NCBI GenBank assembly: GCA_030704615.1
Contig: CM060732.1
Location: forward strand, 16,058,001 to 16,122,000
Source of the DNA: Takakia lepidozioides
Taxonomy: Eukaryota > Plantae > Bryophyta
DNA: 64,000 nt
Direction: 5' to 3'
Shown: piece after piece, positions 3,823-30,719 of the stretch
Layout: every line of letters starts with the position of its first letter
Position numbering within the stretch: position 1 is the stretch's first letter
Made by a program: the position numbers and the translations under genes
The notes under the pieces: generated by a model
Database searches by the model: none
The model's input: only the letters and a program-made list of their open reading frames with translations
Told to the model about the DNA's origin: nothing

Positions 3823-3970
3823 AAGGTGAATTCATATACTCGCTTAAGAATGACTCAGACAAAGAAGTGAATGTCGTCAACGACATTCAATCTGGATCTA
3901 TGATTGCAATCCTTATGAAGCCACATTTTTTCCCAAAAAAAACAGTAGAGTTTCAAGTATGACATTGCAC

Positions 3971-4490: not shown

Positions 4491-4569
4491 TGACATGGCC
4501 CTTCAGATGTTGCGAATGAAAGCATAACGAGAATTTGCAGAACAGCATACAACAAGATTCTGCATACAT

Positions 4570-7500: not shown

Positions 7501-8915
7501 TCCCACCAGGCAAGAATTCGGCGATTCCCGTCCACACAAAGAACATTTTACCCGACATATGGCCGAAGTCTGGATCACCCCTTCAGCGTTGCCTCGAATT
7601 CGTCGTTGCGAGTGTGCCAGTGGGTATCCCATGTTGACAATTCATCCGCAGTGGGTCCACGAGATTTGCCGTCCTCATTCTCAAGGGAAACGTAGAAGGC
7701 TGGCGAACCTAGATGGTACCCTTCTCGAAATACGAACTTGAGCTTATCCACATCTCCGGGAAGTGCCTGCCTGACAATGGGAAGGGAGACCATGCGACAG
7801 AGTGGGATTTGAAGAGTCCGCTGGAATACCTTGCTGCCCAGAACTCTGCCAATGCTACTGTGTGTCTCCTCCAACATTGTATCCGCTGCACTTTGGAATT
7901 CCTCCGGAGACATTTCTGCTGGTGGCGGTAGGGGCTGAGCAGCTGGAGCATCCCCAACTGGAGCTGCACTCTGGGGAATCTTTGCGGGCAATTCTGCAAT
8001 TGCAGAGGCCTCCTCCGGGCCTGCAATATTCTGAAGATCTTCCTCAACGGTGGTCTGGTCTTGCTGCGAACGTTGAGCGGCAGCACCCTCCTCCGGTACC
8101 ACATCGACAAAATCGGTCGATCCCATTGCCTTCGCTGCAGCAAAGACGCCCCCAACATCACCAGGCTGGAAATCAAGCAGGAACTGGGCTTCAGCTCGTG
8201 GAATCGGTTTTGCGGGAGACTGCTCCGCCCTCCCCCTGATTGCCTTGTGCTTCCTCATTCTTGCAGGTGAAGGTGTCTGCTGCAATTCAATCTGCTTCAT
8301 TCGCCTGGGTGGGGGGGAAACGGTCTGGTCCGGTTCAGAAACAAGTTGAAGGACGGGCTGCTTCTTCTTCATCTTTGCTGGAGAAGGGCTAGACCCCTGC
8401 TGGCGATTCTCCATGACCTTTGAACGCGAGTCGCTCTCTGGGGCTTTGAATTGCAAAGACTTGCCCTTCGAAGCCACGTCCTTGAAACGCACAGGGCTAG
8501 GCCCGGCAGGAAATCCCATGCTCGTGGATCGGCTGGGTGTACATGCTGCAGCTAGCTCCACGGACTCTGCCTGCGGCTCTTCGGATTCCTGCGATCCCTC
8601 CAGCACGTCCACCTTTCCGGTTAGGCATGCAAACATCTTCTACATTCAAGTCTCCTAGCATACAGTCTAAGAATTGCAGAAGAAAAATGAGGCGAGTTTC
8701 GGTGCTCGATCAGCTGGCGAATCCCGATAGCACGGAGCTCTCACTGGTGGCTGGGTTGCCTGCGTGGCCTGATGCTGCGAGATGGCAATCTCCTCCTGTA
8801 GATGCATCTGCTTCCTCCCCTTCGGCATTGGCCTACGTCCGAAGTACAATTTTTGGAGCTTGCGACGATGTCTCTTCTCTGGTGCACGCACTCCCTCCAT
8901 CTCAGGTTCAAGCAT
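4570..8915 (-). pseudogene. Element B ParB/Srx-DNA methyltransferase fusion gene, disrupted
   Basis: Exons encode LQIPLCRMVSLPIVRQAL...MFFVWDGNRRILAW (ParB-like), CDMIILDIPDG, VLDDRGCVVVL and RSPAFIQTIMETCTDVEGTVLDLICGT (MTase). Lesions: +1 G frameshift near 7578 and in-frame stops near 7131, 5407 and 4810. The last exon is missing. The first exon (8915-8745) is inferred from in-phase splice sites. Confidence 0.85.
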
Positions 8916-9262
8916 AAGAAGAAAAAAGACAGGGAAAAAAGGCGAAGAGTGCAAATGGAAAGGGCGCGAGAGGGGTGACTCAGGAAACACGACAAAAGAA
9001 GATGAAACGGCGGTGATGCACCACTTGGGTTCGAAAGGGTTGGAAAAAGTGTCTCCTCGTGGACCTTGCGTCATTACAAAATTTGAATCGTTCAGGGTAC
9101 GCCTGTCGTCCGAAAAACAAACATCATTATCCAACGGTCAGGCCGCGCCGCCTCATGCCACTTCAGTCAGATAGAGTGCAGACATGTGCCGCAATTCCGT
9201 TGCTCCACGTGTTCACATTTCATGGCATTTCCGTCCCAGCGTCTGATGAGTTGGAGTGAAAA

Positions 9263-10605
9263 TGCAAATGCGGCGCCGCATTTCCATTAAGTATCATCAC
9301 GAAGCTACACATCCGTACTTGTTGGAAGAAAATGCGGCACCGCATTTCCGTTCCACTTTCACAAACCTTAGTTGTTGAACGCAAATACGGTGCCGCATTT
9401 CCGTCCCACAGCTCCATGCCTGAGATACAAAAGGGAAATGCGGCGCCGCATTTCCGTTCTGGAATGTCGAAAGGTGCGATTCGGAAATGCACAACATTTC
9501 GGTTCCCCGTGGTTCATGATTTTCAATCTGAACGAAAATGCGGTCCCGCATTTCCGTTCCACCTTCACATACCTTAGTTGATGAACGGAAATGCCGTGCC
9601 ACATTTCCATTCGGGAAAGTATAAAGGTCTCACCTGAACGGAAATGCGGTGCCGCATATCCGGTGGGGAAAGTTTGAAGGTCTCACATGGATGGAAATGC
9701 CGCACCGCATTTCCGTTCTGGAATGTTGGAAGGTGCGACTCGGACGGAAATGCGGTGCCGCATTTCAGTTCCGATGGTTCACGATTTTCAGTCAGAACGG
9801 AAATGCGGTACCGCATTTCCGTTCTGGAGAGTATGAAGGTCTCGCCCGCACGGAAATGCGGTGCAGCATTTCTATCCCTTAGCTCCATGCGACAGATACA
9901 AAACGGAAATGCGGCGCCGTATTTCCGTTCTGGTATGTCGGAAGGTGCGACTCGGACGGAAATGCGGTACCGCATTTCCGTTCTGGAGAGTATGAAGGTC
10001 TTAACCGGTCGGAAATTCGCTGCAGCATTTCCGTCACCCGGCTCCATGCCTCAGATACAAAACGGAAATGCGGCGCCGCATTTCCGTTTTGGAATTTTGG
10101 AAGGTGCGACTCGGACGGAAATGCGGTGCCGCATTCCAGTTCCGATGGTTCACGATTTTCTGTCTGAATGTCTGTTCTGGAGTGTATAAAGGTCTCACCC
10201 GGACGGAAATGCGGTGCAACATTTCTATCCCTCAGCTCCATGCGTCAGATACAAAACGGAAATGCGGCGCCGTATTTCCATTCTGGTATGTCGGAAGGTG
10301 CGACTCGGACGGAAATGCGGTGCCGCATTTCAGTTCCCGTGGTTCATGATTCTCAATCAGAACGGAAATGCGGTACCGCATTTCCGTTCCACCTTCACAT
10401 ACCGTGCTTGTTGGATGGAAATGCGTTACCGCATTTCCGTTCTGGAGAGTATAAAGGTTTCCCCCAGACGGAAACTCGGTGCCGCATTTCCGTCGCTTTG
10501 GTGCATGACTAAGATGCAAAACGGAAATGCGGTGCCGTATTTCCGTCCAACAGCAATCGAAAGTATCACTCCGGACGGAAATGCGGAACCTCATTTCCGC
10601 ATGCG
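9263..10605. repeat. Palindrome array 1 of element B (24-bp CGGAAATGCGGNNCCGCATTTCCG plus 29-bp linker; 53-bp period)
   Basis: Repeat starts at 9798, 9851, 9904, 9957 and 10010; about 25 copies; perfect 34-bp palindrome at 9793-9826. Confidence 0.95.
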
Positions 10606-11266
10606 GAACCTAAATGGGTTGCTTTGTTCCGAAACAACACAATTGCGGCCTGTCTTGATGAGCACAACTTGGTTGTCTGACCGTTTTAACCGAGGCGGGT
10701 TTCGGTGTTCGCTCAGTTGGTGAATCCCGATAGCACGGAGCGCTCACTGGTGGCTGGGTTGCCTGCGTGGCCTGATGCTGCGAGATGGCAATCTCCTCCT
10801 GTAGACGCATCTGCTTCCTCCCCTTCGGCATTGGCCTACGTCCAAAGTACAATTTTCGGAGCTTGCGACGATGTCTCTTCTCTGGTGCACGCACTCCCTC
10901 CCTCTCAGGTTCGAGCATAAGAAAAGCAGAGACAGGGAAAAGGGACGAAGAGTGCAGATGGAAAGGGCGCGAGTGGGGTGACTGAGGAGACACGACAAAA
11001 GAAGATGAAACGGCGGTGATGCACCACTTGGGTTCAAAAGGGTTGCACGAAAGTGTCTCCTCGTGGACTTTGCATCATTACGAAATTCGAATCGTTCAGG
11101 GTACGCCTGCCGTCCGAAAAACAAACATCATTATCCAACGGTCAGGCCGCGCCGCCTAATGCCACTTCAGTCAGATAGAGTGCAGACATGTGCCGCAATT
11201 CCATTGCTCCACGTGTTCAAATTTCAAGGCATTTCCGTCCCAGCGTCTGATGAGTTGGAGTGAAAA

Positions 11267-11995
11267 TGCAAATGCGGCGCCGCATTTCCGTTAAGTACCA
11301 TCACGAAGCTACACATCCGTACTTGTTGGAAGAAAATGCGGCACCGCATTTCCGTTCCACCTTCACATGCCTTAGTTGTTGAACGGAAATACGGTGCCGC
11401 ATTTCCGTCCCACAGCTCCATGCCTGAAATACAAAAGGGAAATGCAGCGCCGCATTTCCAATCTGGTATGTCGGAAGGTGCGACTCGGACGGAAATGCGG
11501 TGCCGCATTTCAGTTCCCGTTGTTCATAATTCTCAATTAGAACGGAAATGCGGTACCGCATTTCCGTTCTGGAGAGTATGAAGGTCTTAACCGGTCGGAA
11601 ATGCGCTAAAGCATTTCCGTCACTCGGCTCCATGCCTCAGATACAAAACGGAAATGCATCGCCGCATTTCCGTTCTGGAATGTCGGAAGGTGCGACTCGG
11701 ACGGAAATGCGGTGCCTCATTTCAGTTCCCGTGGTTCATGATTCTCAATCAGAACGGAAATGCGGTACCGCATTTCCGTTCCACCTTCACATACCGTGCT
11801 TGTTGGATGGAAATGCGTTACCGCATTTCCGTTCTGGAGAGTATAAAGGTTTCCCCCGGACGGAAACTCAATGCCGGTTTTCCGTCGCACTGGTGCATGA
11901 CTAAGATGCAAAACGGAAATGCGGCGCCGTATTTCCGTCCAACAGCAATCGAAAGTATCACTCCGGACGGAAATGCGGAACCTCATTTCCGGATG
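11267..11995. repeat. Palindrome array 2 of element B
   Basis: Same repeat and linker types as array 1, about 14 copies, inside the second copy of the duplication. Confidence 0.95.
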
Positions 11996-12384
11996 CGGAA
12001 CCTGAATGGGTTGCATTGTTCCGAAACAACACAATTGCGGCCTGTCTTGATGAGCACAACTTGGTTGTCTGACCGTTTTAACTAACAGTCCTGGCACTTG
12101 TCAGTGCGAACGTTCATGTCTGCACCAAGAATACTGCTGGATCCACCCTCAGGAGAAACTGTCAGGAGATGTTATTTCGTCGCCGAATCGGCCATCATTG
12201 TCATACTTACTGGCTATGGAATCACACCTCCCACCTTCATGCATGTAGCTTGAAACAAGACTTTCCACTTCAATGTGCAACTTCCAATCGTCGAGGGACT
12301 CCGCAGATCCACTTACATGGTGCCTGTGAGCCTTGGTATGTCGCTATACTGAACCTCGCACTTGCCAACTTCGTGCGGTTTTCG

Positions 12385-14085
12385 ATGGCTCCGAATTCCT
12401 ACGCTATAGTTTGCTGTCCTCCGCAACTTGGGAGAGCCTGGATCCCAAACGAGGGAGGACTTTGCAGAGTGACTGAAACTTACCTTTGTTCCAAATTCAA
12501 ACTCAAACCGGGCACAATTTATTTGGAAGACGAAAGGAAGGATGTTCCTGGACAGGTTGACGAGACCAGTGTCGTGCTAGGTAATGACGGAGGTTGCGGA
12601 ATCGAATGGCACGTACCCCCATCAGACACCATCATGTACCGAGCTGTGGGAATGCCCATTCACTTTCCGAATCAGTCGCTGCCCACACCATCCACAAAGG
12701 AGTCCGGAAACCGACAGGCGGCCACTGCCAACAGAGAGGTATGCAACGATAATCATTCCCGACCTGGACCGTCAAGACCCTCCATAGCTTCTCGTGTGGA
12801 CATATTCGACATTTCCGACGAGGAAGATGAGTGCATTGAGGTCCCCATGTCCTCCACACGGTCGTTCAAATCCGACATGGACGTCTCTGCAGGTACTACG
12901 CATGTACCCTCGAGCATAACTCCAACCCGGTCCATTGTGCAGCTCCTACGGCAACATCACCTCGATGGTTCTCGCTCCGAGCTGGCTGCTCTTGACTATG
13001 CCAAATTTCCTGTCAGTATCTGCCTCCCGAAGTTGATGGCAATGTCATCTTCGAGTTTCCACCTATTACTTCGTCAAACAAAGCCTCAGGGATGTTAACA
13101 GACATGGATCGAAAGCATGACGGACACCCCTGGTGTGTGACGAAGACCAGTAGCACGAAAATTGCTGATGGTGTTCGTGTACGATACGTCCTCTGTGCGG
13201 GGAAGCTGAGGTGCCTCAATCCCGCCTGCTTCCACTTTCTCTCCAAAGGAGGGCGGAGAAACGAGACGGATTGGACTGGCACAACGCCTCATCCATCCAT
13301 TGTCTCCAGCCAAGCTCCTTCGGGTACTTTCAAGTGCGCACATTGCAAAGAACCACCGACGTGCATGTCCATGTGCAGAGCCAAGCAATATTACGTTATC
13401 CATTTACTCCCGGACTTGACTTGAGCTTGCATACACGTTGGGGTCCACTGCCACCCCTTGGCGAGAGGCAACATGCGTGAGGCTGTGCAGGAAGCACACG
13501 ACATCATAAAGAGGAGGTGAAATTGAGCCCCGGAGCCAGACCAAAGCAGATTCAGCTGAAGGCAGCCCACAAGATTGCTCTTGGCAAAATCATGTCTGAA
13601 GATGGTTCAGACCGGGTGCCCTTGAACAAAGAGGAGATGCTTGACCTGTTGGAGTCCGTCTCGCACGTTTGTAGTCCGAATGTGCGGAATCACATTGTAT
13701 CTTGCAAGCAGGAGTTTGGCCGGGGGTCGGACATGCACTCAATCCTGGAGGTGAAACGAATGACTGGATATGACTACATCCAAGGTAGCAGATTTCCAGG
13801 GTAAGGCAGCGAATCCGATCATTGTTACATTTTTAAAATGTCGACGTGTGGGCCTGAGAGTGGAGTCGACTTGGTCACTCGCATGACAACTGGAAACTTG
13901 TCGAATGCTTGGGTGATGTTTGATCACATCAAGCGAATTACAAACCATAAGTGGGTGACTATGGGTGCGCATGTTTATGACTATCACTCCAAGAGGCTCA
14001 TGACGATTGCAATCTGTGAGATGAAAGGGGAGGAAACACAGTCGGAGATGCATCTGTGGGAGGGCATAAACGAGCAGATGGCAAG
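12385..14085 (+). pseudogene. Element B MULE transposase, 5' part
   Basis: MDRKHDGHPWC...C.G.L.C.N..C...C..C (homologous to A), WVMFDHIKR, MTIAICEMKGEE. Frameshifts near 13015 and 13510, stops at 13422 and 13802; ends at the TSD. Confidence 0.9.
14077..14085 (+). repeat. 9-bp target-site duplication, left copy (GATGGCAAG)
   Basis: Identical to 26684-26692; the flanking bases differ on both sides. Confidence 0.95.
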
Positions 14086-14190
14086 CAGCGTAGCTACGGC
14101 GTGAGCCCAGCCCCGTGAGCCTGGGAGCTGAGCTCACGTTCAAGCTTTGAAGCGTGAGCTGAGCTCACGCTTCAGGGAAGCGTGAGCGGC
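14086..14190. repeat. Left terminus of A: degenerate TIR with clustered CGTGAGC/GCTCACG motifs
   Basis: CAGCGTAGCTACGGCGTGAGCC aligns with the right-end reverse complement GGGGGGTGCTATTCCGTGAGCC (GCTA and CGTGAGCC in register). Confidence 0.8.
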
Positions 14191-14504
14191 ATGAATCTGC
14201 TGGAGAAGCAGGTCCTATAGGCGAGGATTGCAGGAAGAGGGCCTATTACCGTGGACAAAACAAAGGAGGCCACCATGCACCATGTCTGCAATGCGTGCCA
14301 AAAAAGAGGAATATGTAAACATGTCAGATTTGAGCTCAGAATGATTGACACAGTTTATTTCAATTCACAGAGAGACGCTTACAATGAATCGCAAGTGCAT
14401 TTGCCCTCACAAGTGAACGAAATGTATATGTTTGTCATAAAATGAAAAGTCTTCACACGGCAACCTGGAAACCAGCATGGGAAGCGGGCATGGCTCGTAT
14501 GTGT

Positions 14505-17500
14505 TCAAAGAGAAGTTGGCGGAGCTCTACGCGAGGTGTCCCGCTGCAGAAGGGTGATGACTTCTCCGTAGCCTAGTGTGGCTTGGTGAATGAATTGGTC
14601 TCTCTTACCGTCGCAACACATAATTACAAGGTATATGTAATATTGATGCTTGCAGGGGACCCACTTCCCTCTCATGCCGAGAGCGCCCTCACGCATCGTT
14701 ACAAAATCCGGACAAGTGCACGATGGGAAATTCCCAATGGTAACTTGATATTCTTTGGCATGAAGAACTGAGCCAATTGACAGCACTGTGTAAATCCGTC
14801 CATACCCCGGGGAAGGGACTTCGGTGATACGAGCCACCGTAGCCTGCAAAATTCTAGCCGATTCCATCTTGCATTCGTGATCTGCACCCGAAGCAACACG
14901 GCGCACTGTTTTTCCATCTCTTTTTGTTGGGTGGGAGTTGGCACCGGGTGGAGGCATTGTCGGAGCATGTGGCACATCTGTGCCGACAGTGCATAAGGGC
15001 ACCACCCGGGACCGTGCAAGACAAAACCCTCCCTCCTCCAGCATGCTTATCTCGGTTGAGGACAGCGATGTCCCAATTTGCACAGGCCAAATTGCGGGGG
15101 GAGGGGGCTTCATTATCACGGAAGGACGAACTGTTCCCTTCACGCATCGTGCCATATCGTCTGGGCAGAACCAAAACTTGTGCTCTTTTGACTCCCCACT
15201 ATGATAAGGTCGGAACAACCCTGTGAATGTTGGAGCTGGAGTCCCCCTGGAGCCTTTGCATATTTTTGATTTGCATTTCTTGAAAGAGGGGGTCCGAATT
15301 GCCATGCAAGCCACTCTAGATCCTGGTGGGGTGCGTTCTATATGCCAGTCACTATCAATGCAATCAGATTCCTGCACCATGGCCACCACCTCCTCCAATG
15401 GGATTTCCGCTGCTATGCTTGCATGTTCCGCACCTGCTCCACAGGAGGAGGACCCACCTGGGAAGGGGCCGGCACAGGACTTAGTCTGCACTGGAGACAC
15501 CTTTGGCACAGAGAAATTGACCCTGTCTGGCCTATGGGAATCTCCATCTGACCCTGGAAGAGTGTTTAATTTCCTTTTGCATGATCCAAATCTTTCCTCG
15601 CCTTCCAAATGGGGGAGCCTGGATTGCAGAGGGGAACCTTCAGTGCACCTGTTTAGAGCTCTGGCCATCTTTGACGGGTCTCCGGACCTACTCGCAGCCC
15701 TTAGCATCAACAAAGTCGAATCGGGGCCCTTCCCTCCACCCCGTCCCATCAGAAAATTGCGGTACCTGGTTTGTTGTGTAAGTGCCCGCACCATGTCATC
15801 AGCAGTGGCCACATACAAGTCACGACCTGCTTTGGTAGACTGTTGCATCCAGGCGTTGTGAACAGTCTCTGCCAAATTACACGATGGCATGTCGGCCAAG
15901 TCCTCCAAGGACATGTCCTGCAGGAGGCATTGCATGGAAATGTGAGGAAGGAAAAGAAATGGTAGAGGTTATTCAAGTGACAATCGAACAACCCCAAATG
16001 AACAGGCACGATGCAAAGTGCAATTTGTGTTTAAGGAAAACTTGTGAGGCTTACCGTCGTCATGAAAGCTCCCCACTGTCTGTACCTGAAGTGCCAGAAA
16101 ACCAACCAGTCCTCCAACTCCTTCAGGTGGATACCTGTAGCAGCACCAGCGGAGAACCACCAAGCCCGGATTGCCTGGTAAGTGCTCTCTGCTTCTCCCA
16201 TTGAGGTGGCATTCTTGTACTTCAGACAGAGCCTTCTATGCTCCAACTGAAGGTCAGGGCGAATGCAGCGCTTTGTATGACGTGCCAGAGATTGACTCCA
16301 ATGGAAGAGGCATGTGCGCTCCCTATTTTCCATGGGGACCTTAGGATCCCCAGAACCAAACACGCGCCGCACTGCATTGAAATTTGCCTGTGCACTATCA
16401 GCCATGAAGCCCGCAAAGTTTGTGTTCTGTATTCCATTGCGCTGCATGACGGTCAGGAGGGACTTCCACATGAGCATCTGGGATTCAGTGTCCTCCGACT
16501 GCATATCACAAATTGCTATGGAGAGCACACGCTGGTACGCTGGATCATACACATGGCACGCCATGGTTGTCCAACCCTTCACCCGTTTGCAGTGATCAAA
16601 CATTAACCAACATTTAGCCAAATCTCCTCCAGGTTGCATTCGGCGGACAATGCTCACACCACTGCCTTGGCCCACAGCGGACATCTTGAACAAATACACT
16701 TTGGACGAGCCCTGGCCAGGGAACATACTGTTTTGAATGAATTCATAGCGACTCCTCCGTTTGAGGTCCATAATGTTGTCCATGAATCCAGCAGTGCCTG
16801 TGCCCATTCTGAGTGCATTCACCTGGTTTCGAATATTGGGAGAGCTCAACACGGAGAAATGGTCCATGACTGCCTCAAGGGAATCTGCATCCAGCATTGG
16901 CTGTGTCGAATCCCCTTCACCCAGTATGTGTTTTTCCAGGAATGCCTTGCTAGCTGCAAGCGCTATAGCAGAAGGTGTTGCAGAAGGGGCATTATGGAAC
17001 TCTTGCTTCAGTAGATTTCTAGCGATGTCCACGCTATCCCTGCAACTCCCTTTGGACACAGGATGCTCGTGTGCACCCATATGAATGCAGGCACGAGTCA
17101 TTGTCTTGCATCGATGTGCCACCTGATACATACGAGCGTGGCAAACAGAAACACAGGACGGGGAAAGTTTGCAGAACCTGCACACAAAAGTATTGGTATT
17201 GGGAGGTGCAAGCCCTGGGGTGAAAGGATTCAGGGGCACACCTTCCCACTCACTTTCGTTTGGCTGAGCGCTGTTTCTCAGCCGAGGGCAAGAAATATTC
17301 AGGCACTTGCAATGCCCAACGCAAACCGACCTCCGAAATTTCAAGCCAATGTCGTTATGGATGTTCGAAGTTTTTGTCCTGCACCAAGGATGTCCGTCAT
17401 GTTTCTTGTCCATGCCCTGCAGAAGCCCAGCCAGTCCACTGGAAGACGTGGGAGGGTTGAGCTCAAACAAGATGTCCCCATCAAACTGAGCTGGCACGTA

Positions 17501-18076
17501 TTGAACACGTTGCACTGGAAGGGACTCCCAATCAACAAAACGTAGCTCGCTCTTGCACCCAGGCACACCTGCGAGGGCTTTCAATTTTGGAATGACACTT
17601 GTTATCTCGCGCAATTCGTCATCATCCAATAAGGGAGTTTGCACTGGCGGAGGAATCTCAGAAACATCCTCCGAGGACGAGTCCGAAAGAGTAACGAAGG
17701 TAGTGGATGTGCTCACCTCTTGTTTCACAGGAACTGTGCCCTTCTGTTGCACGACCGATGCTGCAGTGCCAGGGGTAACGACTGATCCTGCTGATTGTCT
17801 TCTCTCTTTTCCAAGGACACGGTATGTTCCTGGAAGGACTCTCCACTTCCTTCCACACTCGCCAACCAAGGGTTTCTCCAAGTGCCCAGAATCCAAATTC
17901 CCATCCTCGTCATACACCTCTTTCTGAACAAGCAGAGAACCCAACTCCAGCGGGAACACTGTAACCAGCTCATCCTCATGAACAACTGCATACCCATCGT
18001 CGTCTGCAGTGGCAGTCAGTGGAAGAGTACCTGCATTGGAATGGAATCGAGCGAGTGCATCTCGCTCCCTCGACAT
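14505..18076 (-). CDS. MULE transposase with GCM-like Zn domain, DDE core and C-terminal SWIM finger (about 1144 aa; exons 18076-16055 and 15917-14505)
   Basis: WLMFDHCKR; FMADSAQANFNAVRRVFG; ERTCLFHWSQSL (MULE CxxH); CNLAETVHN (catalytic E); CTCPDF...CKH (SWIM). A phase-0 GT-AG intron joins two open frames. The start codon is inferred. Confidence 0.9.
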
Positions 18077-19018
18077 GTTTTCCAGCACTGAACGAAACTG
18101 CCGATGCAGAACGGAATCCCCGAACTGAGAGCCCGTAATTATCGAAAGTGGAAATACCACCAGCAAACTGAGGTCAACAAGGGTAGCACCAAACCCAAGG
18201 CTGCCGGCGATGCATGCCAAGGATGTAGGGATGACGTGCACATTCACCTCCCACCAACCAGAAAAACGGTTTTGAAAGACCAGAGCCACAAGAAGCCGTA
18301 CTGTTTTTGGATGGAAAACAAACCCTGAAATTGACATGAAACCATCCATTATGAAATGACGGCAACAACCCTGGAGAGCAGTAAACAGGAAGATCCGATT
18401 GTAATGAGATTGTGTTGCGCCAGAATAGCACAGAACAAACACCGACACTTCAAGAGATACCTCGCACGAATGTGTGCAACACATGGTCATATCCGACACA
18501 ATCCTTTATACCGAATGACCCCATGGGGACGGTCACGGCATAAAAAAAACCACAGGGCATGCAGCACAACACACGTGGATGCATATGTGAAGCATAACAA
18601 TTATTGCGAATCTGGAAGAACTGCTCGGAATTGAAAAAGCACTACATTTCTACGGCGCATTCGAATTTGAAAGAAGGCAAGGAGGCCGCCATGTATTGGC
18701 AGGCGGCGAAGCACATCTGACATATATCGCAAATGCATGCAACGGATATTCTTTTTCTTCGGCGCTTTATTAGCTGGGTAATACAAAGACGACAAAATGG
18801 ATGAATTCCGTTCGCACACAATATCAACACCCGCATCCAAATACGGTTGACAACGTCCATTTTTATTTTTGTTACATGCGATACCAGAACTTGTTGCAAA
18901 CGTCAAACTGGAGAGCTCCAGGGGCATCGTGGGGAGCCCTTGTTTCCAGCGGAGGAGAAAGAGAAGGAAGTCATTATACTTCACGAGTTCTAGAAACAGG
19001 AATAGAGCTAGATATAGA

Positions 19019-22000
19019 ATGAGGATGGAAAGAGTGGAGGAAGAGGAAAAGGAGGAAGAAGAGGGAATACAGGAAAGTGTGGCGATGGAGGAGCAGGAAT
19101 CTGGAGAAGAACAACAACCCACCATAGTTCCAGGAACAGGCGAGGAGGACACTGCGTCTGAGGGAGAGACAGACGACATGGAGGAAGATGTTGACACTGG
19201 CCTCACGAACGATCTGACCACGGGAAAGAGGAAGGGGGAGAGGCTCACCTACATAGTCGGCGAAGAGAGCAGCCCCAAGCGGAAAGCGTCCCCGGCAACT
19301 GGGGAGTCTTCTCGAGTAGCTACGAAAAAGGTAAAATCCACACGACCCATATTTGTGAAGAATTCGGCTTTGAATGGCAGGTATTTGTGAAAGAAAGAAC
19401 CATTGGTCTTGCAAAATTTGGTCTTGATGTCTGTTATGTGAGGGTGAAACGAACCCTTCACTGCCAGCCCAGACAGTGTGCGGCAACGCACACTGTTTGA
19501 GCTGAGCATTTCAATGTTTCTGGGTGCAAAATTTGGACTTCATGGGCACCTGTGTGAGTGTGAAAAGAACCCTTCACTGCCAGCCCAGACAGTGTGCGGC
19601 AACGCACACTGTTTGAGCTGAGCATTTCAATGTTTATGGGTGCAAAATTTGGACTTCAGGGGCACCTGTGTGAGTGTGAAATGAACCCTTCACTGCCAGC
19701 TCAGACAGTGTGCGGCAACGCACACTGTTTGAGCTGGGCATTTCGGTGTTTCTGGGTGCAAAATTTGGTCTTTGCTGTCTGTTATCTGAGGTTGAAATGA
19801 ACCCTTCAAAACCAGCTCAAACAGCGTGCGGCAACGCACAATGTTTGAGCAGACCTTTTCAATGTTTTAGGGTTCAAAATTTGGTCTTGATGTCTGTTAT
19901 GTTAGTGTGAACCCTTCACTGCCAGCTCAGACAGTGTGCGGCAACGCACACTGTTTGAGCTGAGCATTTCAATGTTTCTGGATGCAAAATTTGGACTTCA
20001 GGGGCACCTGTGTGAGTGTGAAAAGAACCCTTCACTGCCAGCTCATACAGTGTGCGGCAACGCACACTGTTTGAGCTGAGCATTTCAATGTTTCTGGTGA
20101 AATATTTGGACTTCAGGGGCACCTGTGTGAGTGTGAAAAGAACCCTTCACTGCCAGCTCAGACAGTGTGCGGCAACGCACACTGTTTGAGCTGAGCATTT
20201 CAATGTTTCTGGGTGAAATATTTGGACTTCAGGGGCACCTGTGTGAGTGTGAAAAGAACCCTTCACTGCCAGCTCAGACAGTGTGCGGCAACGCACACTG
20301 TTTGAGCTGAGCATTTCAATGTTTCTGGGTGAAATATTTGGACTTCAGGGGCACCTGTGTGAGTGTGAAAAGAACCCTTCACTGCCAGCCCAGACAGTGT
20401 GCGGCAACGCACACTGTTTGAGCTGAGCATTTCAATGTTTCTGGGTGCAAAATTTGGACTTCAGGGCACCTGTGTGAGTGTGAAATGAACCCTTCACTGC
20501 CAGCTCAGACAGTGTGCGGCAACGCACACTGTTTGAGCTGAGCATTTCAATGTTTCTGGATGCAAAATTTGGACTTCAGGGGCACCTGTGTGAGTGTGAA
20601 AAGAACCCTTCACTGCCAGCTCATACAGTGTGCGGCAACGCACACTGTTTGAGCTGAGCATTTCAATGTTTCTGGGTGAAATATTTGGACTTCAGGGGCA
20701 CCTGTGTGAGTGTGAAAAGAACCCTTCACTGCCAGCTCAGACAGTGTGCGGCAACGCACACTGTTTGAGCTGAGCATTTCAATGTTTCTGGGTGAAATAT
20801 TTGGACTTCAGGGGCACCTGTGTGAGTGTGAAATGAACCCTTCACTGCCAGCTCAGACAGTGTGCGGCAACGCACACTGTTTGAGCTGAGCATTTCAATG
20901 TTTCTGGATGCAAAAATTGGACTTCAGGGGCACCTGTGTGAGTGTGAAATGAACCCTTCACTGCCAGCTCAGACAGTGTGCGGCAACGCACACTGTTTGA
21001 GCTGAGCATTTCAATGTTTCTGGGTGCAAAATTTGGACTTCATGGGCACCCGTGTGATGGTGAAATGAACCCTTCACTGCCAGCTCAGACAGTGTGCGGC
21101 AACGCACACTGTTTGAGCTGAGCATTTCAATGTTTCTGGGTGAAATATTTGGACTTCAGGGGCACCTGTGTGAGTGTGAAAAGAACCCTTCACTGCCAGC
21201 TCAGACAGTGTGCGGCAACGCACACTGTTTGAGCTGAGCATTTCAATGTTTCTGGGTGAAATATTTGGACTTCAGGGGCACCTGTGTGAGTGTGAAAAGA
21301 ACCCTTCACTGCCAGCCCAGACAGTGTGCGGCAACGCACACTGTTTGAGCTGAGCATTTCAATGTTTCTGGGTGCAAAATTTGGACTTCAGGGGCACCTG
21401 TGTGAGTGTGAAATGAACCCTTCACTGCCAGCTCAGACAGTGTGCGGCAACGCACACTGTTTGAGCTGAGCATTTCAATGTTTCTGGGTGAAATATTTGG
21501 ACTTCAGGGGCACCTGTGTGAGTGTGAAATGAACCCTTCACTGCCAGCTCAGACAGTGTGCGGCAACGCACACTGTTTGAGCTGAGCATTTCAATGTTTC
21601 TGGGTGCAAAATTTGGACTTCATGGGCACCCGTGTGAGGGTGAAATGAACCCTTCACTGCCAGCCCAGACAGTGTGCGGCAACGCACACTGTTTGAGCTG
21701 AGCATTTCAATGTTTCTGGGTGCAAAATTTGGACTTCATGGGCACCCGTGTGAGGGTGAAATGAACCCTTCACTGCCAGCCCAGACAGTGTGCGGCAACG
21801 CACACTGTTTGAGCTGAGCATTTCAATGTTTCTGGGTGCAAAATTTGGACTTCATGGGCACATTTTTGAGTATAAAATGAACCCTTCACTGTCAGCTCAA
21901 ACAGTCTGCGGAACCGCACACTGTGTAGGCAGAACATATGAATATGGAAGGGCGCAACTTTCGGCCCTCATGGGCAGATATTTGAGCAGAACTTTTCAAT

Positions 22001-25000
22001 GTTCTTTCCCTGTGTAAATCGGGAACATAGTGCATGTCCGTGAGGATCAATGAACACTTATCTGGCAGCTCAAAGAACACTTCCCTTTTTATCCCACTTT
22101 TTCATGCATCGGTCGACGTTTCATTCCTCTCTTATAAGAATTTGAGTGAACAACCTTGCAGGGGAAAATGCAAAGTGTGGCGGATGAGGTCCCTCAGGGT
22201 CAGGGGAAGGAGACCAAAGATGATGTTGACGATGAGTTTTATGAAAGCAAAGCCGCTGAGATGCTGGGGGGTCAAAAGGTGAACTCTCAGCTTGTGGTTC
22301 AAAGTATGCTTGCTCCTGGTGGGAGGTTGAAGATTCCCCTGTGTAGGTTGGTTTCCATGCCCGTCGTTCGTCCACCCCTTGTCAAAGACATTCTCAAGCT
22401 GGAGGCCGAGTTTGTTCATGGGTATTTGGATGGATCCGCGGTCTTTTACGTTTCTACTAGGGATTCAAGAGGTAACGAGCTCCTTGTTGATGAGTCAATC
22501 GTCGACTCCTGGGACCCCATTTGGAGACAGGTGAACGAATCCTTCGAACTTCTTCTCTCCAGAAAACCTTCCACCCAGGTATTCTCGGGGAAGATGTTTC
22601 ACGTTTGGGATGGCAACCACCGGTTGCTTGCATGGATGGCTGTCATTGGGAGGCTGCACTCACAGGAGGAAGAGTGGCATTACTCTGTTCGATCGATGGT
22701 GCTTGATTGTGACGACAACATGATGGGTCTTCTGACGGCAATGAATGATGTGAACAGGTTGGTTTCTCATTGTACACGTTGCACTTCTGGTTCCGTTCTT
22801 CCTTGATTGAAGTCCTTGAATTACATTCTGAAATTCAGATATCATTCTGCAGAGGGACGGAGACATCGCATGTCAAAACGAGTCTGGTTCACACACTGTA
22901 TAGGATACAAAGGATCGGGCAGATGCCCTTGACCAACTTCAAGACCATCCTTTCGGCAGAGATGTATAAGAAATGCGAAAGCTCCAAGACTTCGGAAACA
23001 TGGTACTCGTTGACCCGTGAGGCTTTCATGGAGTACATGTACACGGTGAGATACATCTTCCTTCATCTGGCCTTTCCATATTCCTGCTTCCACATGTTTG
23101 TTTCTCTCTGTCTCCCTTGACCTTGGATTGATGCAACTCTCTTGCATTCCCTTGCAGCAAGACATTGCAGATGCAGGGGAGCGTGGCAAACTGGAATACT
23201 ACAGCTCTACCCCTGAGGAGAGAAGGACAGCAAAGGGAGTTGAAAGTCACATCCAGAAGGAGATGAACGCTACAAGAAGGACAATAATGAGTGCTTTTGT
23301 GAAGCAGTTGAGAATGGCCGACCCATCATTCGGGCCGCAGTTTCTGCTGGAGATAAAAAACCATTATAACAAGCCAGGCAAGCCGGAGATGGCCCAGGAG
23401 AAGTTGCACAGGTTGTCTACCGCCGTCGTGTCTTCTGAACAGAAGGTGAAGTGGCTGCAGATATGGAACTCCGATCCCACAGTTAGGGATACCCACATGT
23501 TCCCAAGGCCAGAGAAGGAGAAGAAGACCCAGCGTGTCGTTCCTGTCAGTGACAATGTGCTGGACAACTGGCTTCACAAGGCCACTTACTGGAGCCAGGT
23601 GTGATGTCCTCTCGTATCTCACTTTCTTTTCTCTTTTCCTGTCCTTCTCTTCCCATTGCCTCTTACATTCGCTGTGACTGTTTTTGGGTTCATTCTTCCA
23701 TTTCAATTTTTTTGCAGTTGGAAGAAAGGGCCCGATCGGTTCTGCATACTCAGCTGGCTGACTATGGCATCACTATGACAGCTCCGAAGGTCTCCTTCGA
23801 AGCATACATGAGGAAATGGAGAGCCACAGTGTGGCACTCTGGTTTCTTTAGAGAGTTCAGCAAGGAGGGTGGCATCAGTCGAACAAATGAGCTTGACCAG
23901 CAGGAAAAAGGAGAGGAAGCCTGGAAACGATGCCTTTACAGGTGCACACCCTTGCACTCTTTGCTTGTGTTGTGGTTGCAATGTGTTGTGTGGCATACTG
24001 TTTAAGGGGGTCTTCCTGGTGTGTTGAAAAAGCTGGGACACAATATGTGCATTGGATAATGAGGCTGTGTCTGTTCGTGCAGGTACATTAAGTTTGTTCT
24101 CCTGGAAGAGAATTGCTTGGACAAACATCCAGATTTCGTGGACCTTTGGCTTGTCCCTGCTGGCAACCAGACCATGTTCACTGCTGGGATCTTGCATGAC
24201 TGGGGTCCGGACCATCTTTCTTCTTGTGGTTGGTATTTGGATTGCCCTCCTTCAGAGACCCCAGCTGTAGAGTTGTCTTTGAGGAGAGAGAATGACCGTA
24301 TTGCAGCCACTGCCGCAGCAGCGGACCTCGACATTCATGAGCGTAATCTGAGGACTCTTGCAGAGAAGGAGCCTCCCGCTCAGGATACCCCGGGTAGAGG
24401 AAGAAAGGCAAAGGGAAAAGATGTTGCTGGTGTTGTGGGGACGGGAAGGGGTAGAGGGAAGGTGGCACAAGGGCAGGGAAGTGTTGCAGCTATTGGCCCT
24501 GTGGAGCATGTCCAGCAGACTCCACCGCATGGTAGGGGATCCGGGAGAAAAAACAAGGGTGTGGTTGATCCCAAGGACCCGTACCATGCAGTGGAACATC
24601 CCACGAGGGTCATTCGTCCAACCAGGTTGGAGATTGCCAACGTCGGGTTCCTTGCCATGATGGAGTCGAAGAAATCTGATTACAAGGGCGAGCCATCACC
24701 AGTGTGGGAGAGGATTGTCGAGTTCCTCAGCACGGTGCGTGTTCTCTTTGGGTTCTGTGGCTTCTGCTCTCTTTGTCTGCTGTGGGCATGGATCGTTTAT
24801 AAACTTGTCAGAATTCCATTGTATTTTTGTTTGCAGGCTAAAATGACCAAATCGTGGGTGAACGGGAAGGAGAAGCCATATGCAGCGGAACTCATCATCT
24901 TGGACATCCCTGATGGGTTGGCAGTCCCGGATATCCCACCATCGGGTGCTTGTCCGGGTTGGAATGCATTTGATGAGCGCTACTGGCGGTGGGTTTTTTC

Positions 25001-25897
25001 CTTTTGCAACTTCTTCCTTTCCGATGCAGGTGTTTTGGTTCTCATCCAGTCCATCGATGTTCGGTGTCGCCGTGCCCTTGCCAGCTATTTGAAAGCCTCG
25101 AGCATGAGAGTCCTGAAGACATGGAATTGTGTGAACAGCATGTACCTTACGAAGGGGGATCGTCCGGGAGAGATGGTGAGTTTCCCTTCTTCTTCCTCTT
25201 CTTTTTTGTTCTGGGATTGTGTTGTGTAGGTCGCTCAAACTCATATGTAGGGGCCCGATTTTATTTTGGTTCTTAGTTCCTTCTGGATGTCATGTTCGCA
25301 GACTCGTCTGTTTGAAGCTGTTTGTCTCGTCCGGGTGCATCCACCAACGACTCCGGCCGGCATTACGGAGTTTGCCATCACTCACGGGGGCAAGTTCATA
25401 GATGACAGGACAGATCCTCCCACGGATGACATGCATCACAACTACGTCGACAGCAACGTGTGCTTGCGAAGGGGGAATGGGGTTCCTTGGAGAGGGGCGA
25501 GGGAGAGGAGCCCGGCTTTCATTCAAACGATTGTGGAGTGCTGCACCTACACAGACGCCAGAGTTCTGGATTTGTCGATGGGCACAGGTTCGTCCCTTCA
25601 ACATTCACATTTCATGAGGTTTGATTGAGCTTGCACTTTCAGCACTTTCCACCGTTCCGAATGTGTCTTCAATGTCTGCTTACTTCATTCTATTCCACTG
25701 CAGGTGCTTCGTACCACGCTTGCAAGGCCAGTGCGCGACATGTCTTTGGGATTGAAGGGGATGCTGAGATTTACAAGAACCTCCTGATGGGTTTGGGTGG
25801 ACACACTTCTCAGGTCCTTCCGAAGCCCCGTCCCGCTGATACTGGTACAGAGGAGACTTCTGACAAGGAGCTGGACTCCGACTTTGCCTGTGAGTAA
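19019..25897 (+). CDS. ParB/Srx-domain-N4/N6 DNA methyltransferase fusion protein (about 1078 aa, 9 exons)
   Basis: Predicted exons 19019-19330, 22162-22757, 22853-23045, 23158-23598, 23718-23941, 24083-24734, 24837-25175, 25302-25587 and 25704-25897; all GT-AG and phase-compatible. Motifs: MFHVWDGNHRLLAW; ELIILDIPDG; FLSDAGVLVL; ERSPAFIQTIVECCTYTDARVLDLSMGTGASYHACKASARHVFGIEGDAEIY. Exon 1 is the least certain. Confidence 0.85.
19430..21930. repeat. 116-bp tandem array (about 21 units), each unit with an 18-bp-arm hairpin; lies in predicted intron 1
   Basis: GTGTGCGGCAACGCACAC starts at 20165, 20281 and 20397. Hairpin: CAGCTCAGACAGTGTGCG-GCAA-CGCACACTGTTTGAGCTG. Confidence 0.95.
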
Positions 25898-26529
25898 GTT
25901 GAACCTGTGCATGCTTGCATTGTTGTTTCATTATCGAGAATCGCTGTTCTTGAGGCAAAGTGCAAATGGGAGACATCCTCTTCGTTGGACTTGTGCATTG
26001 CATCATTGTGTTAAAAATGGAATTTTGTGGACATGTGTAGGAGTCCGCGTGCTTCCACTTGCCCTCCTGGGCTATCACACCTATTTGGACTTGTTTTCAG
26101 TCCTCCTCGTCTTGTGTGCTACCTGTCTATGCGGAGGCACTCGCAGCAAGCATGTCCGTTCATGGCACTCAGAGTCCACCTTGCGATGGCCTTCGTAGAA
26201 CACGTGGTGTTGGGGCCAGAATCTTTGTAGATGACATAGCACAGGAGGTGGACATTGATTGTGATGACTGCGACACTTGATATGAAGTATTCTTTTGGTT
26301 TAATTCTGGGACAAATTTGAAATGGGATGGTTGTGTGTCCTTATTGTCCTCTTTGCAATGTGTGCATGGAATTCACATTCATGGTTCCAAACTATTGTTG
26401 GAGATGGGGGTTGCATGGACTGCCCGGATTGTTCCTTCAATATATTTGTTGTTTTGTGGACCTCACAGACTTGAGTACATTGCAAAAACAAACAAACCAC
26501 TTTGTTCTCAATTCTCAATTCTCCCCACA

Positions 26530-26683
26530 TCAACCCGCGGAAATAGGTGACCCCACTCGGAAATAGGTGACATCCGCGGAAATAGGCACTGTTTGCATGC
26601 TGACGTGGCGTGAGCCTGTGCTGGGCTCACGCTTTCCTGGGCTCACAGGCTCACGCCTCCAGGCTCACGGAATAGCACCCCCC
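26530..26683. repeat. Right terminus of A: three CGGAAATAGG direct repeats, a GCTCAC(G) cluster and terminal CCCCCC
   Basis: Read directly from the sequence; abuts the TSD. Confidence 0.85.
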
Positions 26684-28588
26684 GATGGCAAGGGCAGGAT
26701 TGCCAGAGCCCAATTTCAGGGGATTCATGGCAAACAACGCTCAGGCCAACTGGGCAGCGGTGCGGCGTGTGTACGGTGAGGACCCCAATGTTCCAATGGA
26801 GGGGAAAGAGAGATCATGTGGATTCCATTGGATGCAGAGTCTATCTCACTACACTACCAAATTTGTTGCTAGCTCATTCCAGGCTGAACACCGTGTCCTT
26901 TGTACGGCGTGGAAGGATGCACCCACATTTGATGACGCGGAGGTTAAGTTTGCTATCATCGAGGCTTGGTGGAACACGTCAGGTGCAGTGGAGACAACCA
27001 ATCTAGGAGCCTTGCACAGCTGGTTGGGGTGGTGGCATTTCCGGTATCGACAGTTCGGACAGTACATGCGGGAGGTATGATGCTGTCATTTTCGTGCAAT
27101 TGTCTTTCTATTACGGACCTTTCCATTGGTTCCTCACCATTGTTTGTGTCCTTATAGGAGCGGTGCTTGGATTCCGATACGGACATGCCGAACACGAATA
27201 TGGCAGAATCAGTGCACTCCTCCTAGCGAGCGTCTTCTGCCGCACATCTGGTGGACGTAGTGACGGCCACAACGGAGGACATCGACAGAGCAATAATGCA
27301 GCAAGCCACGTACCACAAGTTCCTGAGCGGGAAACAATGGGGCTTTGGGCCGGACATGGAGGAATTGTTGGTACGAACAACTTCGAGGTCGAAGAATCCA
27401 CTGAAATGGGCGACATCATTGCGAGAGAAGATCAAAGGGACGCCTCTGCACCGCAGAGGTGAGCACCTAGAGGGGGACGTCCGTACTCGCCTTGTGAGGC
27501 GGAGGATTGAAGAGGAACCCGGGTACGAAGAGGATTCTTGGAGATCCGACAGGAGCATTCGGACAACACCTCGAGGGCCCGTCATGTTGCCACACAATGT
27601 GTCTTCCAGCAGTGGAAGCCCAAGAAATTCCAGATCGCCATCGCCTTCAAGCGGGGATTCCGTGCGAGAAATTCCCACCGCTCGCTTGCCCCAGATTCCG
27701 CCCGCTGTTATGCAGTATGGCCAAGCCATTGTGGAGACGACTGTATCTGCGTCACAGTGGAGAATTGCTCGCACAAAGTCGTCGTTTCGAGGCAGGTGTT
27801 CCGCAATTCGAGTGGATACACGACAACGTTGTTTAGAGATGATAAGGAGGAATCCAGATGGTGCTGTCCCTGCTCCTACTTTTATAGGAAGATTTGTCCA
27901 TGCAAAGTTTGCGGAGGCGACAACCACCCAGTTCTGGTTCTGCAGGCACGACATTATGACTTGCGTGTATGGAAAGCCCAAGTACGGCATACAAACAATG
28001 CCAGAGGCTCCCCCGGTGTGGCCGGTGGAACCAGGCTACGATCTGAGTCAGGTTGAGGCCGACGCCCTTACCGCCGCAGGATTTTGGATGGTGCAGCGCA
28101 CTGACGTCCCCAGACAACCATTTCCGCTTCCACAGCCTCCACCACCGACCCCTATGAGAGCAAGAACAATGGGACCCGACAGCTCTAAGCATCCTACACA
28201 CCATTGGGGGAAACCGAAGAGGCGGCGACCTCCCTCAAAAGTGAACGAGACAAGGATGGGGAATGCACTTCGGATGAACTGTACAATCCAGAGCTCGACA
28301 GAAGTGCCCCCACCAGGCTTCAGGCGTGTGTATCAGATGGCCACGGCAGGCTCAGCTGTTCGCAATGAGGTGTACACCATCACCATTTCAGAATTACCCA
28401 CCTGCAATTGCACCGACTTTCAGATCATGGCGAACAAGGGGGCATCATACTGCCCTTGCAAGCATCTGTACTACGTGTACCTAAAGAGACTCCGGTGTAA
28501 TTCCACAACTCATCACTTCATACATGCACCAGGGTTGAGCCCCAAAGAGGTGCACACTCTTCTGAATATGGATCCAGGGGACCAGTGA
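26684..28588 (+). pseudogene. Element B transposase, 3' part (starts with the right TSD copy)
   Basis: FMANNAQANWAAVRRVYG, ERSCGFHWMQSL, WWHFRYRQFG, an intron at the same position as in A, NMAESVHSS* (stop), and SWIM CNCTDF...CKH. Confidence 0.9.
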
Positions 28589-29154: not shown

Positions 29155-29545
29155 TTTCCATGAGCGGATCTAAAAAACCATGAGCGGAGTTGTCACTGAC
29201 GACATATCTTCGCCGCATTACAACATCTGGAACTTCCAAAAACGGCAAGGTCAAATTAAAAAAAACTATTATTTTAATACTTGTTTAATCTGCCGCATTT
29301 CCAAATTTGGAGGAGTCCGCTGAGGTTAGCTATTTCATGAGCATGAGCGGCATGAGCGGAGTAGCAAGACAATCGGTTTTCATGAGCAGAAGTACAAATT
29401 TCTAAAATAAAAAATATTATAAAACATTAATTTAATGCAATGTGTCAGAAAAAAAAACAAATATATTATTCGGCACCTTGAAGGGGAAATTGTAGTTTTG
29501 AGAGTTGTGCTCATGATATTTCGTCTTCCGCTCATGCCAATTCCC
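29155..29545. repeat. Probable right subterminal region of B (CATGAGC(GG) motifs in both orientations)
   Basis: About 8 copies; a one-base variant of A's CGTGAGC terminal motif, at the equivalent position downstream of the transposase. Confidence 0.6.
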
Positions 29546-29559
29546 AGCGACATGTGCAA

Positions 29560-29955
29560 AAATGGTGCCGAATTTCGCGGTAATAGGGTCCGTAACCGGA
29601 AAGAATCGCGACGTATTTTGCGGTAATAGGTCTCTCTGCCGAAAAATGGTGCCGAATTCTGCGGCTATAGGTCCCCTCATGACAAGTGTGTAAGCCCAAA
29701 ATTTGGAAATGTGGCGCCGAATTTCGGTACATGGTGCCGGGGATTACACAGATGTTGGGCAGTTCTGGGCCATGTAACTGGAAATTCGGCGCCATTTTTC
29801 CAGACATCGTTCCCGAGCATGTTCGGACTTAGCCAGTTTTCGGCCCAAAATAGGGAAATTCGGCGCCATTTTTCCTGACACAGGGGTACCAATGCATGTT
29901 GGGACTTAGCCAGTTTTCGGCCCAAAAAAGAGAAATTCGGCGCCATTTTTCCAGA
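29560..29955. repeat. C-type motif cluster (AAATTCGGCGCCATTTT and its reverse complement)
   Basis: GGCGCC cores at 29788, 29862 and 29939, with variants upstream. Confidence 0.85.
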
Positions 29956-30109
29956 AATGGCCCCACAACTGCTTCTGTTGGATCTCAGTTTGAATGGAAT
30001 ATTGCCTCATTCCAGGAGTTTTGGGGTGCATTTCATTACACTGCAAAAAAAAGTCTGATACATGAAAATGCAATTGAAAATATCCATATGGAGGATTCCC
30101 TTTGCCCCA

Positions 30110-30681
30110 TCAATGATTTCTGGAATCCCTAAGGAGGAGTTTGTGCAGCTCGTTCACGCTCAACGCCGGTGCATGAATAAAGTCATCAATAGTCACGTTC
30201 ATCCTCAACCTCTTCAGGTAAATGTAATACAGATGCTTGCACGGATAATACTTTGAACCCTTCTTTGCTTCCATCAACGAGAAGTCCGTACAATTGCAAG
30301 TCGGCTCCACTCCAATCGTAATTGTGTATACATCATCGCGTACAGCCGAGCCGGCCGTTGCCATCCGATAAACACGCCCAAGGCCGGGTGGAGGTACGTC
30401 CACAGAGCTCTGAATAGTGCAAGCCATCCCAAGAGCATTGGCAATCCGCGTCTCATTCAACTTGTTGGGAGGGTGTCGTCTCTTCACTCTTCCGAATCGC
30501 ATTGTGGGATGTGCAGAATTGTCCAATCCGTCTCTACTGGATTCGCGGATTGTTTCGTGGAAGGCGCCAGGATAGAAGGTGCATTTGGCGGGCAAATGAA
30601 GTCCCCAACAGCCTTGTATATGACGCTGTCCGATGGTGGAACTCGCCATTCCCTGCCATCGCCGAAATCATCGTGGAGCAC
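30110..30681 (-). pseudogene. Element C transposase remnant: N-terminal piece joined to the SWIM C-terminus
   Basis: EWRVPPSDSVIYKAVG and ETDWT match B's N-terminal region; NETRIANAL...CNCTDF...CKHLYY matches B's C-terminus. The DDE core is absent. Confidence 0.85.
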
Positions 30682-30719
30682 AACAATACTCTCGACAACA
30701 ACGCCGTTTGAGTCCTTCC

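Follow-up and report, generated by a model that had tools for sequence, protein, structure and literature searches.

Gene A and the transposon that carries it

We analysed a window of 64,000 nt from Takakia lepidozioides (Bryophyta; GCA_030704615.1, contig CM060732.1, 16,058,001-16,122,000 of the forward strand). All positions given below are those of this window. It contains three related transposable elements, here called A, B and C. Element A is an intact Mutator-like DNA transposon with a transposase gene and a spliced cargo gene, gene A, which stand head-to-head and diverge from a tandem array of palindromes (Table 1). The subject of this work is the gene A product's C-terminal domain, a methyltransferase-like domain in which an acid takes the place of the aromatic residue of motif IV.

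Table 1. Coordinates of the elements, genes and arrays in the window.
Feature	Position	Strand	Description
Element A	14086..26683	.	12,598-bp Mutator-like DNA transposon nested in the element B transposase gene; 9-bp identical flanks
Target-site duplication of element A, left	14077..14085	+	9 bp, perfect
Target-site duplication of element A, right	26684..26692	+	9 bp, perfect
Element A transposase	14505..18499	-	2 exons, one 137-nt intron; open for 1285 codons (start not fixed)
Element A tandem array	19437..21924	.	21.5 copies of 116 bp, between the transposase and gene A
Gene A exon 1	22168..22757	+	DUF3723-like, putatively ParB-like domain; DGNHR motif
Gene A exons 2-5	22853-23045, 23158-23598, 23718-23941, 24083-24734	+	Middle region and low-complexity linker
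Gene A exon 6	24837..25175	+	Motif IV equivalent DIPD at 24903-24914; near-invariant WN downstream
Gene A exon 7	25302..25587	+	Counterpart of motif X, starting at 25488; larger part of motif I, with its Asp at 25569
Gene A exon 8	25704..25893	+	End of motif I; motif II Glu at 25754-25756
Copy B (gene B)	4568..8636	-	Decayed gene A paralog in element B; 7 exons, 5 in-frame stops; DIPD kept, motif-II exon absent
Element B array	9250..11990	.	53-bp period, palindrome unlike that of element A; between gene B and the element B transposase
Element B transposase	12169..28588	+	Frameshifted; cut by element A into 12169-14085 and 26693-28588
Element C	29500-33250		SWIM fragment (minus, 30110-30649); ParB-like gene with stops from ~30850

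Mutator-like elements make target-site duplications of 8-11 bp, and the flanks of element A fall in this range. An empty site was also found, as contigs of runs X1 and X2 pass from 26684 into sequence that matches the left flank when compared by eye. A blastn comparison of the right end with the left end of element A revealed no true terminal inverted repeats (TIRs), only short subterminal repeats. Mutator-like elements without TIRs exist. A 7-bp word is present five times near each end (~14100-14181 and ~26609-26663) in both orientations and marks candidate transposase sites; 10-11 of the 12 listed matches of the short repeat lie near the ends. Candidate DDE acids, a CxxH motif and a C-terminal SWIM finger were located in the transposase. 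Its Pfam matches were Transposase_mut (E 7.6e-4, 18.9 bits, below the cut-off of 21) and SWIM (E 0.086).

Gene A consists of 8 exons (22168-25893, plus strand) separated by GT-AG introns of 95-141 nt. The joined frame is open for 971 codons, giving a product of at least 971 amino acids; the model ends with exon 8 at 25893. The canonical introns and the open frame rule out a frameshifted gene or a pseudogene. A preliminary description of this DNA had placed beta-class methyltransferase motifs in the order IV, X, I, II within a domain at 24837..25790. The motifs are all there in that order, starting at 24900 (LDIPD), 25311 (FEAVC), 25506 (RSPAF), 25563 (VLDLSMGT) and 25739 (HVFGIE). The interval is not one open reading frame (ORF), however, but exons 6-8 with their introns, and VLDLSMGTGAS can be read only once intron 7 is removed. 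A contig of run X4, which was taken as RNA by guess only, is 84% identical to exon 7 and then runs directly into letters like the start of exon 8 (26/30, by eye). Upstream of exon 7 it has an open frame that resembles the end of exon 6 (by eye). Since this contig joins letters like those of exons 6, 7 and 8, introns 6 and 7 are supported in a related copy. ILDIPDG occurs twice in the six frames of the window. A contig of run X2 skips 24477-26068 and represents a family copy that lost the entire methyltransferase-like domain.

Exons 2-5 had no match in Pfam, and stretches homologous to them are present in copies B and C. Neither Pfam nor PDB gave a useful match to single exons of gene A. When all 8 exons were compared with Pfam at E up to 1, DUF1985 and DUF287 were absent and the sole row was a chance match to CobS_N. 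No useful match was obtained with the full relative protein P0072 (phmmer) or with nine proteins searched against NCBIfam, and a word-index search of long proteins with the exon-6 region had no match.

Predicted fold of the C-terminal domain

The fold was examined in a relative. The model covers 279 residues of KAG0605740.1 from Ceratodon, which are 24-47% identical to exons 6-8, and is not a model of gene A's own protein. It has a predicted local distance difference test score (pLDDT) of 73 and a predicted template modelling score (pTM) of 0.76. Comparison with CcrM (6PBD) gave a Foldseek E of 9.5e-14 and a VIA Z of 18.0 (root mean square deviation 3.2, 215 residues aligned). The next best in VIA were M.BceJIV, M1.MboII, M.PvuII and the bdelloid N4CMT at Z 16-17, with MT-A70 proteins at Z 10-13. 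The top 20 VIA rows were all beta-class or MT-A70-type, and unrelated rows appeared from Z 6.2 down. The model is only 9-16% identical to solved beta-class chains.

Profile searches pointed the same way. A profile that combined five exons of the window with six relatives free of introns (11 rows in all) matched PDB weakly (E 0.09-0.48), and 3/3 matches were beta-class. The profile alignment pairs D-I-P-D with the D-P-P-Y of M1.HpyAVI, and the W downstream of it with a W of CcrM. The best score against PF01555 (N6_N4_Mtase) was 15.7 bits (E 0.015), under the gathering cut-off of 26.7, and single exons had no match. The domain family is predicted from the relative's model to have a permuted beta-class amino-methyltransferase fold with motif IV before motif I, in agreement with the Rossmann-type class proposed earlier. 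Gene A would carry this beta-class scaffold yet lacks the catalytic motif of the active family.

Motif IV is acid-swapped throughout the family

The preliminary description had called DIPD an atypical substitute for DPPY. To survey motif IV, phmmer was run with exon 6 of gene A, which gave 82 representatives. P0003 and P0053 were removed as repetitive and non-homologous and P0044 lacks the motif region, leaving 79. Active beta-class enzymes carry (D/N/S)PP(Y/F/W) as motif IV. DPPY is present in 0/79 relatives and an aromatic residue at position 4 in 0/79. Position 4 is Glu in 43, Asp in 27, Lys in 3, Ser in 3, Asn in 2 and Thr in 1, that is, an acid in 70/79. Position 1, the catalytic position, is Asp in 61 and Glu in 11 (acid in 72/79), with Gln, Asn, Arg and Gly in a minority. 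Pro occupies position 3 in 66, with Leu and Ser in a minority. Position 2, which is Ile in gene A, is Tyr or Phe in 16/79. The downstream WN is found in 79/80 relatives. The median pairwise identity among the surveyed relatives is 31%. The family motif is D-x-P-[E/D] and DIPD is one spelling of it, Glu being commoner than Asp at the last position. Rescoring in silico ruled out that the absence of DPPY is an artefact of the search. With DPPY swapped in, 51/79 relatives still exceeded the search cut-off, so close canonical relatives would have shown up. We take D-x-P-[D/E] to resemble the motifs that tRNA m1A58 methyltransferases and spermidine synthases have at strand 4; the folds of these enzymes are unpermuted. 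Likeness to spermidine synthase reached a VIA Z of only 4.8 and was rejected.

One explanation is that gene A encodes an ordinary writer of N6-methyladenine (6mA) or N4-methylcytosine (4mC), which tolerates a motif variant, marks its own array, as has been suggested for algal elements, and obtains the aromatic from another residue or a partner subunit. The entire fold and motif order are retained, Asp still holds the catalytic position in most relatives, and position 2 is aromatic in some. However, position 4 is never aromatic, position 2 is Ile in gene A itself, and motif I is eroded. The coding frames of element A contain no DPPY-type motif, that is, no second canonical methyltransferase is encoded. 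Loss of the Tyr is also costly in a related enzyme, as the section consulted of PMC3036652 has HP0593 inactive after the Y107G change in DPPY. According to the portion seen of PMC10406627, models of solved relatives have the Tyr of motif IV stacked on the target base. We regard an ordinary writer as very improbable.

Motifs X and I were compared in gene A and 19 hand-picked relatives, one per cluster, 11/19 of which belong to one subfamily. The Phe of motif I (FxGxG) is absent in 20/20. Its first Gly is kept in 4/20 and lost in 16/20, while Thr is present in 17/20 and the second Gly in 18/20. Gene A keeps both Gly residues; most relatives keep the second only. In motif X, Lys or Arg is present in 19/20 and Gly replaces His in 20/20, although the pattern demanded Gly and none of the 19 relatives failed it. 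The motif-II Glu, at the position of the acid that contacts the SAM ribose in active enzymes, is present in gene A and in 5/5 relatives where it was found; most matches end before this exon. In N4CMT, the same portion of PMC10406627 has the cofactor held by Pro of motif IV, Trp of a loop, Phe/Ser/Thr of motif I, His of motif X and the acid of motif II. Judged by alignment, the gene A family appears to have lost the Tyr, Phe and His and to have kept the Pro, Trp, Thr and acid. Loss of these three residues makes ordinary 6mA or 4mC writing unlikely.

We wondered whether the domain might instead be an active enzyme dependent on S-adenosylmethionine (SAM) with a new acceptor or reaction. Charge or hydrogen bonding from the two acids, three residues apart, would then take over from base stacking. 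The acceptor might be a ring nitrogen or an unflipped base, or an amine of a chromatin protein, or another part of SAM might be transferred. Acids at positions 1 and 4 have persisted at ~31% identity, exon 7 is under purifying selection, and by alignment the Pro, loop Trp, motif-I Ser/Thr and motif-II acid would correspond to N4CMT cofactor contacts (PMC10406627, in part). Algal transposons are described in a section of bioRxiv 10.1101/2025.02.11.637652 as fusing a ParB-like domain to a 2-oxoglutarate (2OG) oxygenase, another modifying domain. On the other side stand the losses in motifs I and X and the variation of motif IV position 1 and Pro in a minority of relatives. No active beta-class enzyme bearing D-x-P-[E/D] came up in the literature search. 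The position-4 acid is too conserved for mere decay, so altered chemistry, although rather unlikely, retains a real share of the probability. Somewhat less likely still is a fuller version, in which the fixed Tyr-to-acid swap gave rise to an enzyme that performs a new reaction and is loaded by a ParB-type clamp at helically phased, element-specific palindromes, and the product is an undescribed eukaryotic self-mark on DNA or chromatin in a widespread land-plant family.

Copies of gene A are under purifying selection

Silent and replacement changes were counted between the window and the 40 best-supported contig rows only, one range start being inferred, and the resulting ratios (pN/pS, replacement over silent) are approximate. 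Exon 7 has 22 silent and 11 replacement changes (pN/pS 0.16) and exons 1-3 have 14 and 3 (pN/pS 0.06), with no stops in either. Copies of gene A are under purifying selection, as supposed in the preliminary description.

That description had also argued that copy B keeps the motifs independently. Over the methyltransferase-like region copy B is identical to gene A at 65/185 positions (35%); the pair scores 253, whereas 500 shuffles reached 48 at most. IILDIPDG, RSPAFIQTI and VLDL..GT are all retained, LDIPD lying at 5189 (minus). With its stops, copy B gives no evidence of present selection on itself. Because it is a pseudogene, it shows an old shared state.

Named relatives occur only in the moss Ceratodon purpureus, as annotated proteins. 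Contigs of metagenomes, viruses and prokaryotes, when scanned, yielded matches of 20-30 residues only, or none. A tblastn search of phages gave weak matches to annotated DNA methylases (residues 114-268, E 0.005-0.3, among the best 15 of 220), and with exon 1 no useful match. The matches are so weak that no donor was identified.

Palindrome arrays and a proposed role for the gene A protein

Each 116-bp unit of the element A array contains a palindrome with perfect 10-bp arms and a 4-bp spacer, which is longer if one mismatch is allowed. All of its window matches (21/21) are inside the array. The element B palindrome has 41 window matches, of which 35 fall within the array, 3 in introns on the gene-B side, 2 at the far end of B and 1 in C, so that 40/41 are in element B. 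Element C has a third type, with 14/14 window matches in C. The three related elements have three palindromes, each nearly restricted to its own element. Taking 10.5 bp per helical turn, the 116-bp array period spans 11.05 turns and the 53-bp period 5.05. These near-whole-turn periods, in two cases only, hint that the palindromes would be set on the same face of the DNA. The element A palindrome can also form a strong hairpin (z -4.6).

The N-terminal part of the gene A product supplies a candidate for palindrome binding. ESM Atlas related exon 1 to clusters of DUF3723 (0.95-0.96) and to one cluster in which ParB_N makes up 11% (0.92); these are language-model leads. The DGNHR motif is one that we take to resemble the ParB/Srx motif. 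The predicted model of exon 1 has a pLDDT of 36. DUF3723 is a cargo family of fungal Starship elements in the consulted part of bioRxiv 10.1101/2021.12.13.472469, and the likeness of exon 1 (22168-22757) to it may link transposon cargo of plants, fungi and animals.

The reading we favour, with modest confidence, is that the spliced cargo protein's C-terminal domain is a pseudo-methyltransferase and that this protein, likely of the ParB type, binds the palindromes of its own element. The DUF3723/ParB-like N-terminal part and the methyltransferase-like part would together recognise the palindromes. Lacking a stacking aromatic, the domain would write neither 6mA nor 4mC. SAM or S-adenosylhomocysteine may still be held by the Pro, Trp, Thr and motif-II Glu that remain, or these residues may merely stabilise the fold. 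In beta-class enzymes, as far as PMC10406627 was available, DNA is recognised by loops after motif IV and the enzymes work as dimers, so the fold could be useful without catalysis. Once bound, the protein would benefit the element that encodes it, most likely in that the shared promoter is kept usable in the face of host silencing, in the manner of VANC from Arabidopsis VANDAL elements; this is the weakest step of the scheme. The preliminary description had offered either altered chemistry or a dead SAM/DNA-binding module kept by selection. The evidence supports this pair, the dead binding module better, and does not separate the two.

Several observations weigh against the pseudo-methyltransferase reading. 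Searches of Pfam, NCBIfam and PDB with exon 1 all gave no match, and the ParB assignment is putative. The position-4 acid is about as conserved as the catalytic-position acid, beyond what a merely dead site would need. The motif-I Thr and second Gly, motif-X Lys/Arg, Pro, Trp and motif-II Glu are conserved, and such persistence of cofactor-pocket positions makes cofactor binding, and some chemistry, possible. The CpG observed/expected ratio is 0.55-0.57 in element A, 0.34 in its array and 0.49 in the distal 24 kb of the window; this depletion gives no sign of long-term protection of element A from CG methylation. Finally, the transposase could bind the palindromes instead.

The last two points also bear on a transposition or self-limiting factor, which would coat the array to repress, pair or package the element, or on a variant in which the transposase binds the array and the cargo acts elsewhere. 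Element A, without true TIRs, may need help in pairing its ends, and no CpG protection is visible. A Mutator transposase is itself reported to activate cognate copies sequence-specifically (10.64898/2026.08.24.746577). The short repeat at both ends of element A is nonetheless a better candidate for transposase sites, and the array sits between both genes, where a regulator would act. We consider such a factor improbable.

For algal ParB-methyltransferase cargo genes self-marking has only been proposed, from genomes. Element A provides a complete test system, with an open cargo gene, an open transposase and exact ends, and the three palindromes on related elements in one window suit specificity swaps. 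The annotated relatives in C. purpureus make the dead and the active readings both testable. Should the domain be dead, self-marking would not hold for this branch of land plants, and its fold would be a sequence-specific binder, VANC-like but made from bacterial parts. If it is active, its chemistry would be new.

Elements B and C and other features of the window

Element B is an older relative of element A with the same layout. A 1.3-kb segment that includes part of its array is duplicated (8689-9980 and 10692-11991, 84% identity). The ParB-like gene of element C stops short near 32650, before the methyltransferase-like part. Where copy B is cut off, a piece of a further paralog follows at once on the same strand (3970-4534); it is equivalent to exons 3-4, 43-48% identical to gene A, and represents a rearrangement or a fourth element. 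A Ty3/gypsy gag (Retrotrans_gag, E 1e-10) with following ORFs occupies 36126-38366. A short ORF at 3437-3760, viewed by eye, resembles the end of a long interspersed nuclear element (LINE) reverse transcriptase.

Comparison with known systems

The closest parallels are in algae. Sola1-1_Ec32 of Ectocarpus has an accessory gene of ~1100 amino acids with ParB-like and N4C/N6A-type methyltransferase parts, proposed in the portion of PMC12477816 at hand to bind its own transposon. By this description, gene A is alike in joining a putatively ParB-like part and a methylase-like part in one chain on the strand opposite the transposase. Sola1-1_Ec32 is a brown-alga Sola element with 282-bp TIRs, a 4-bp duplication and an enzyme presumed active, as that portion has it. 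In contrast, the element around gene A is Mutator-like, comes from a land plant, has a 9-bp duplication and lacks true TIRs, and in its cargo protein an acid replaces the motif-IV aromatic. In the Plavaka elements of Bostrychia, with the genes PAG2 and PAG3, a ParB-like gene lies by tandem inverted-repeat arrays and is proposed to bind its own element; the same elements carry a PF01555 methylase gene, and homologs occur in Chondrus Mutator elements (bioRxiv 10.1101/2025.02.11.637652, in part). As described there, Plavaka uses two genes, ParB with the 2OG oxygenase and methylase with SET, whereas gene A has a putatively ParB-like and a methylase-like part in one chain. The gene A domain also falls below the PF01555 cut-off, unlike the Plavaka methylase.

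CcrM, M.BceJIV, M1.MboII, M.PvuII, N4CMT and Marchantia DN4MT1 share the fold and the IV-X-I-II order with the gene A family. The active beta-class enzymes have (D/S)PPY and the motif-I Phe, whereas the gene A family has D-x-P-[E/D] and Ser/Thr. In DN4MT1, a sperm enzyme of the host, the motif reads TSPPY, as stated in the part consulted of bioRxiv 10.1101/2021.02.12.428880. METTL14 and the DIRS1 methyltransferase domains kept the fold, lost the active-site motifs and are thought to bind (PMC4738411, from a partial text). They resemble gene A in keeping an amino-methyltransferase fold after loss of the active site, and DIRS1 does so inside a transposon as well. By the same partial text, METTL14 has an active partner, METTL3, whereas element A encodes none, and the DIRS1 domains are unpermuted group-2 folds in retroelements, unlike the gene A domain. 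The supplement of PMC4738411, searched for DIPD and DIPE, gave unrelated matches only. VANC is a DUF1985/DUF287 protein that binds non-palindromic 8-9-mers, and its anti-silencing action has been demonstrated, as far as PMC5735166 was seen. Unlike VANC in that account, gene A has no DUF1985/DUF287 match and sits by a palindromic array, and its anti-silencing role is only proposed.

Full-text literature searches turned up neither a land-plant Mutator version nor a D-x-P-[E/D] motif; subscription papers, figures and bioRxiv supplements lay outside this scope and may bear on it. The ParB-methyltransferase cargo design is already published for algal transposons, and the acid-swapped land-plant form appears to be the new part.

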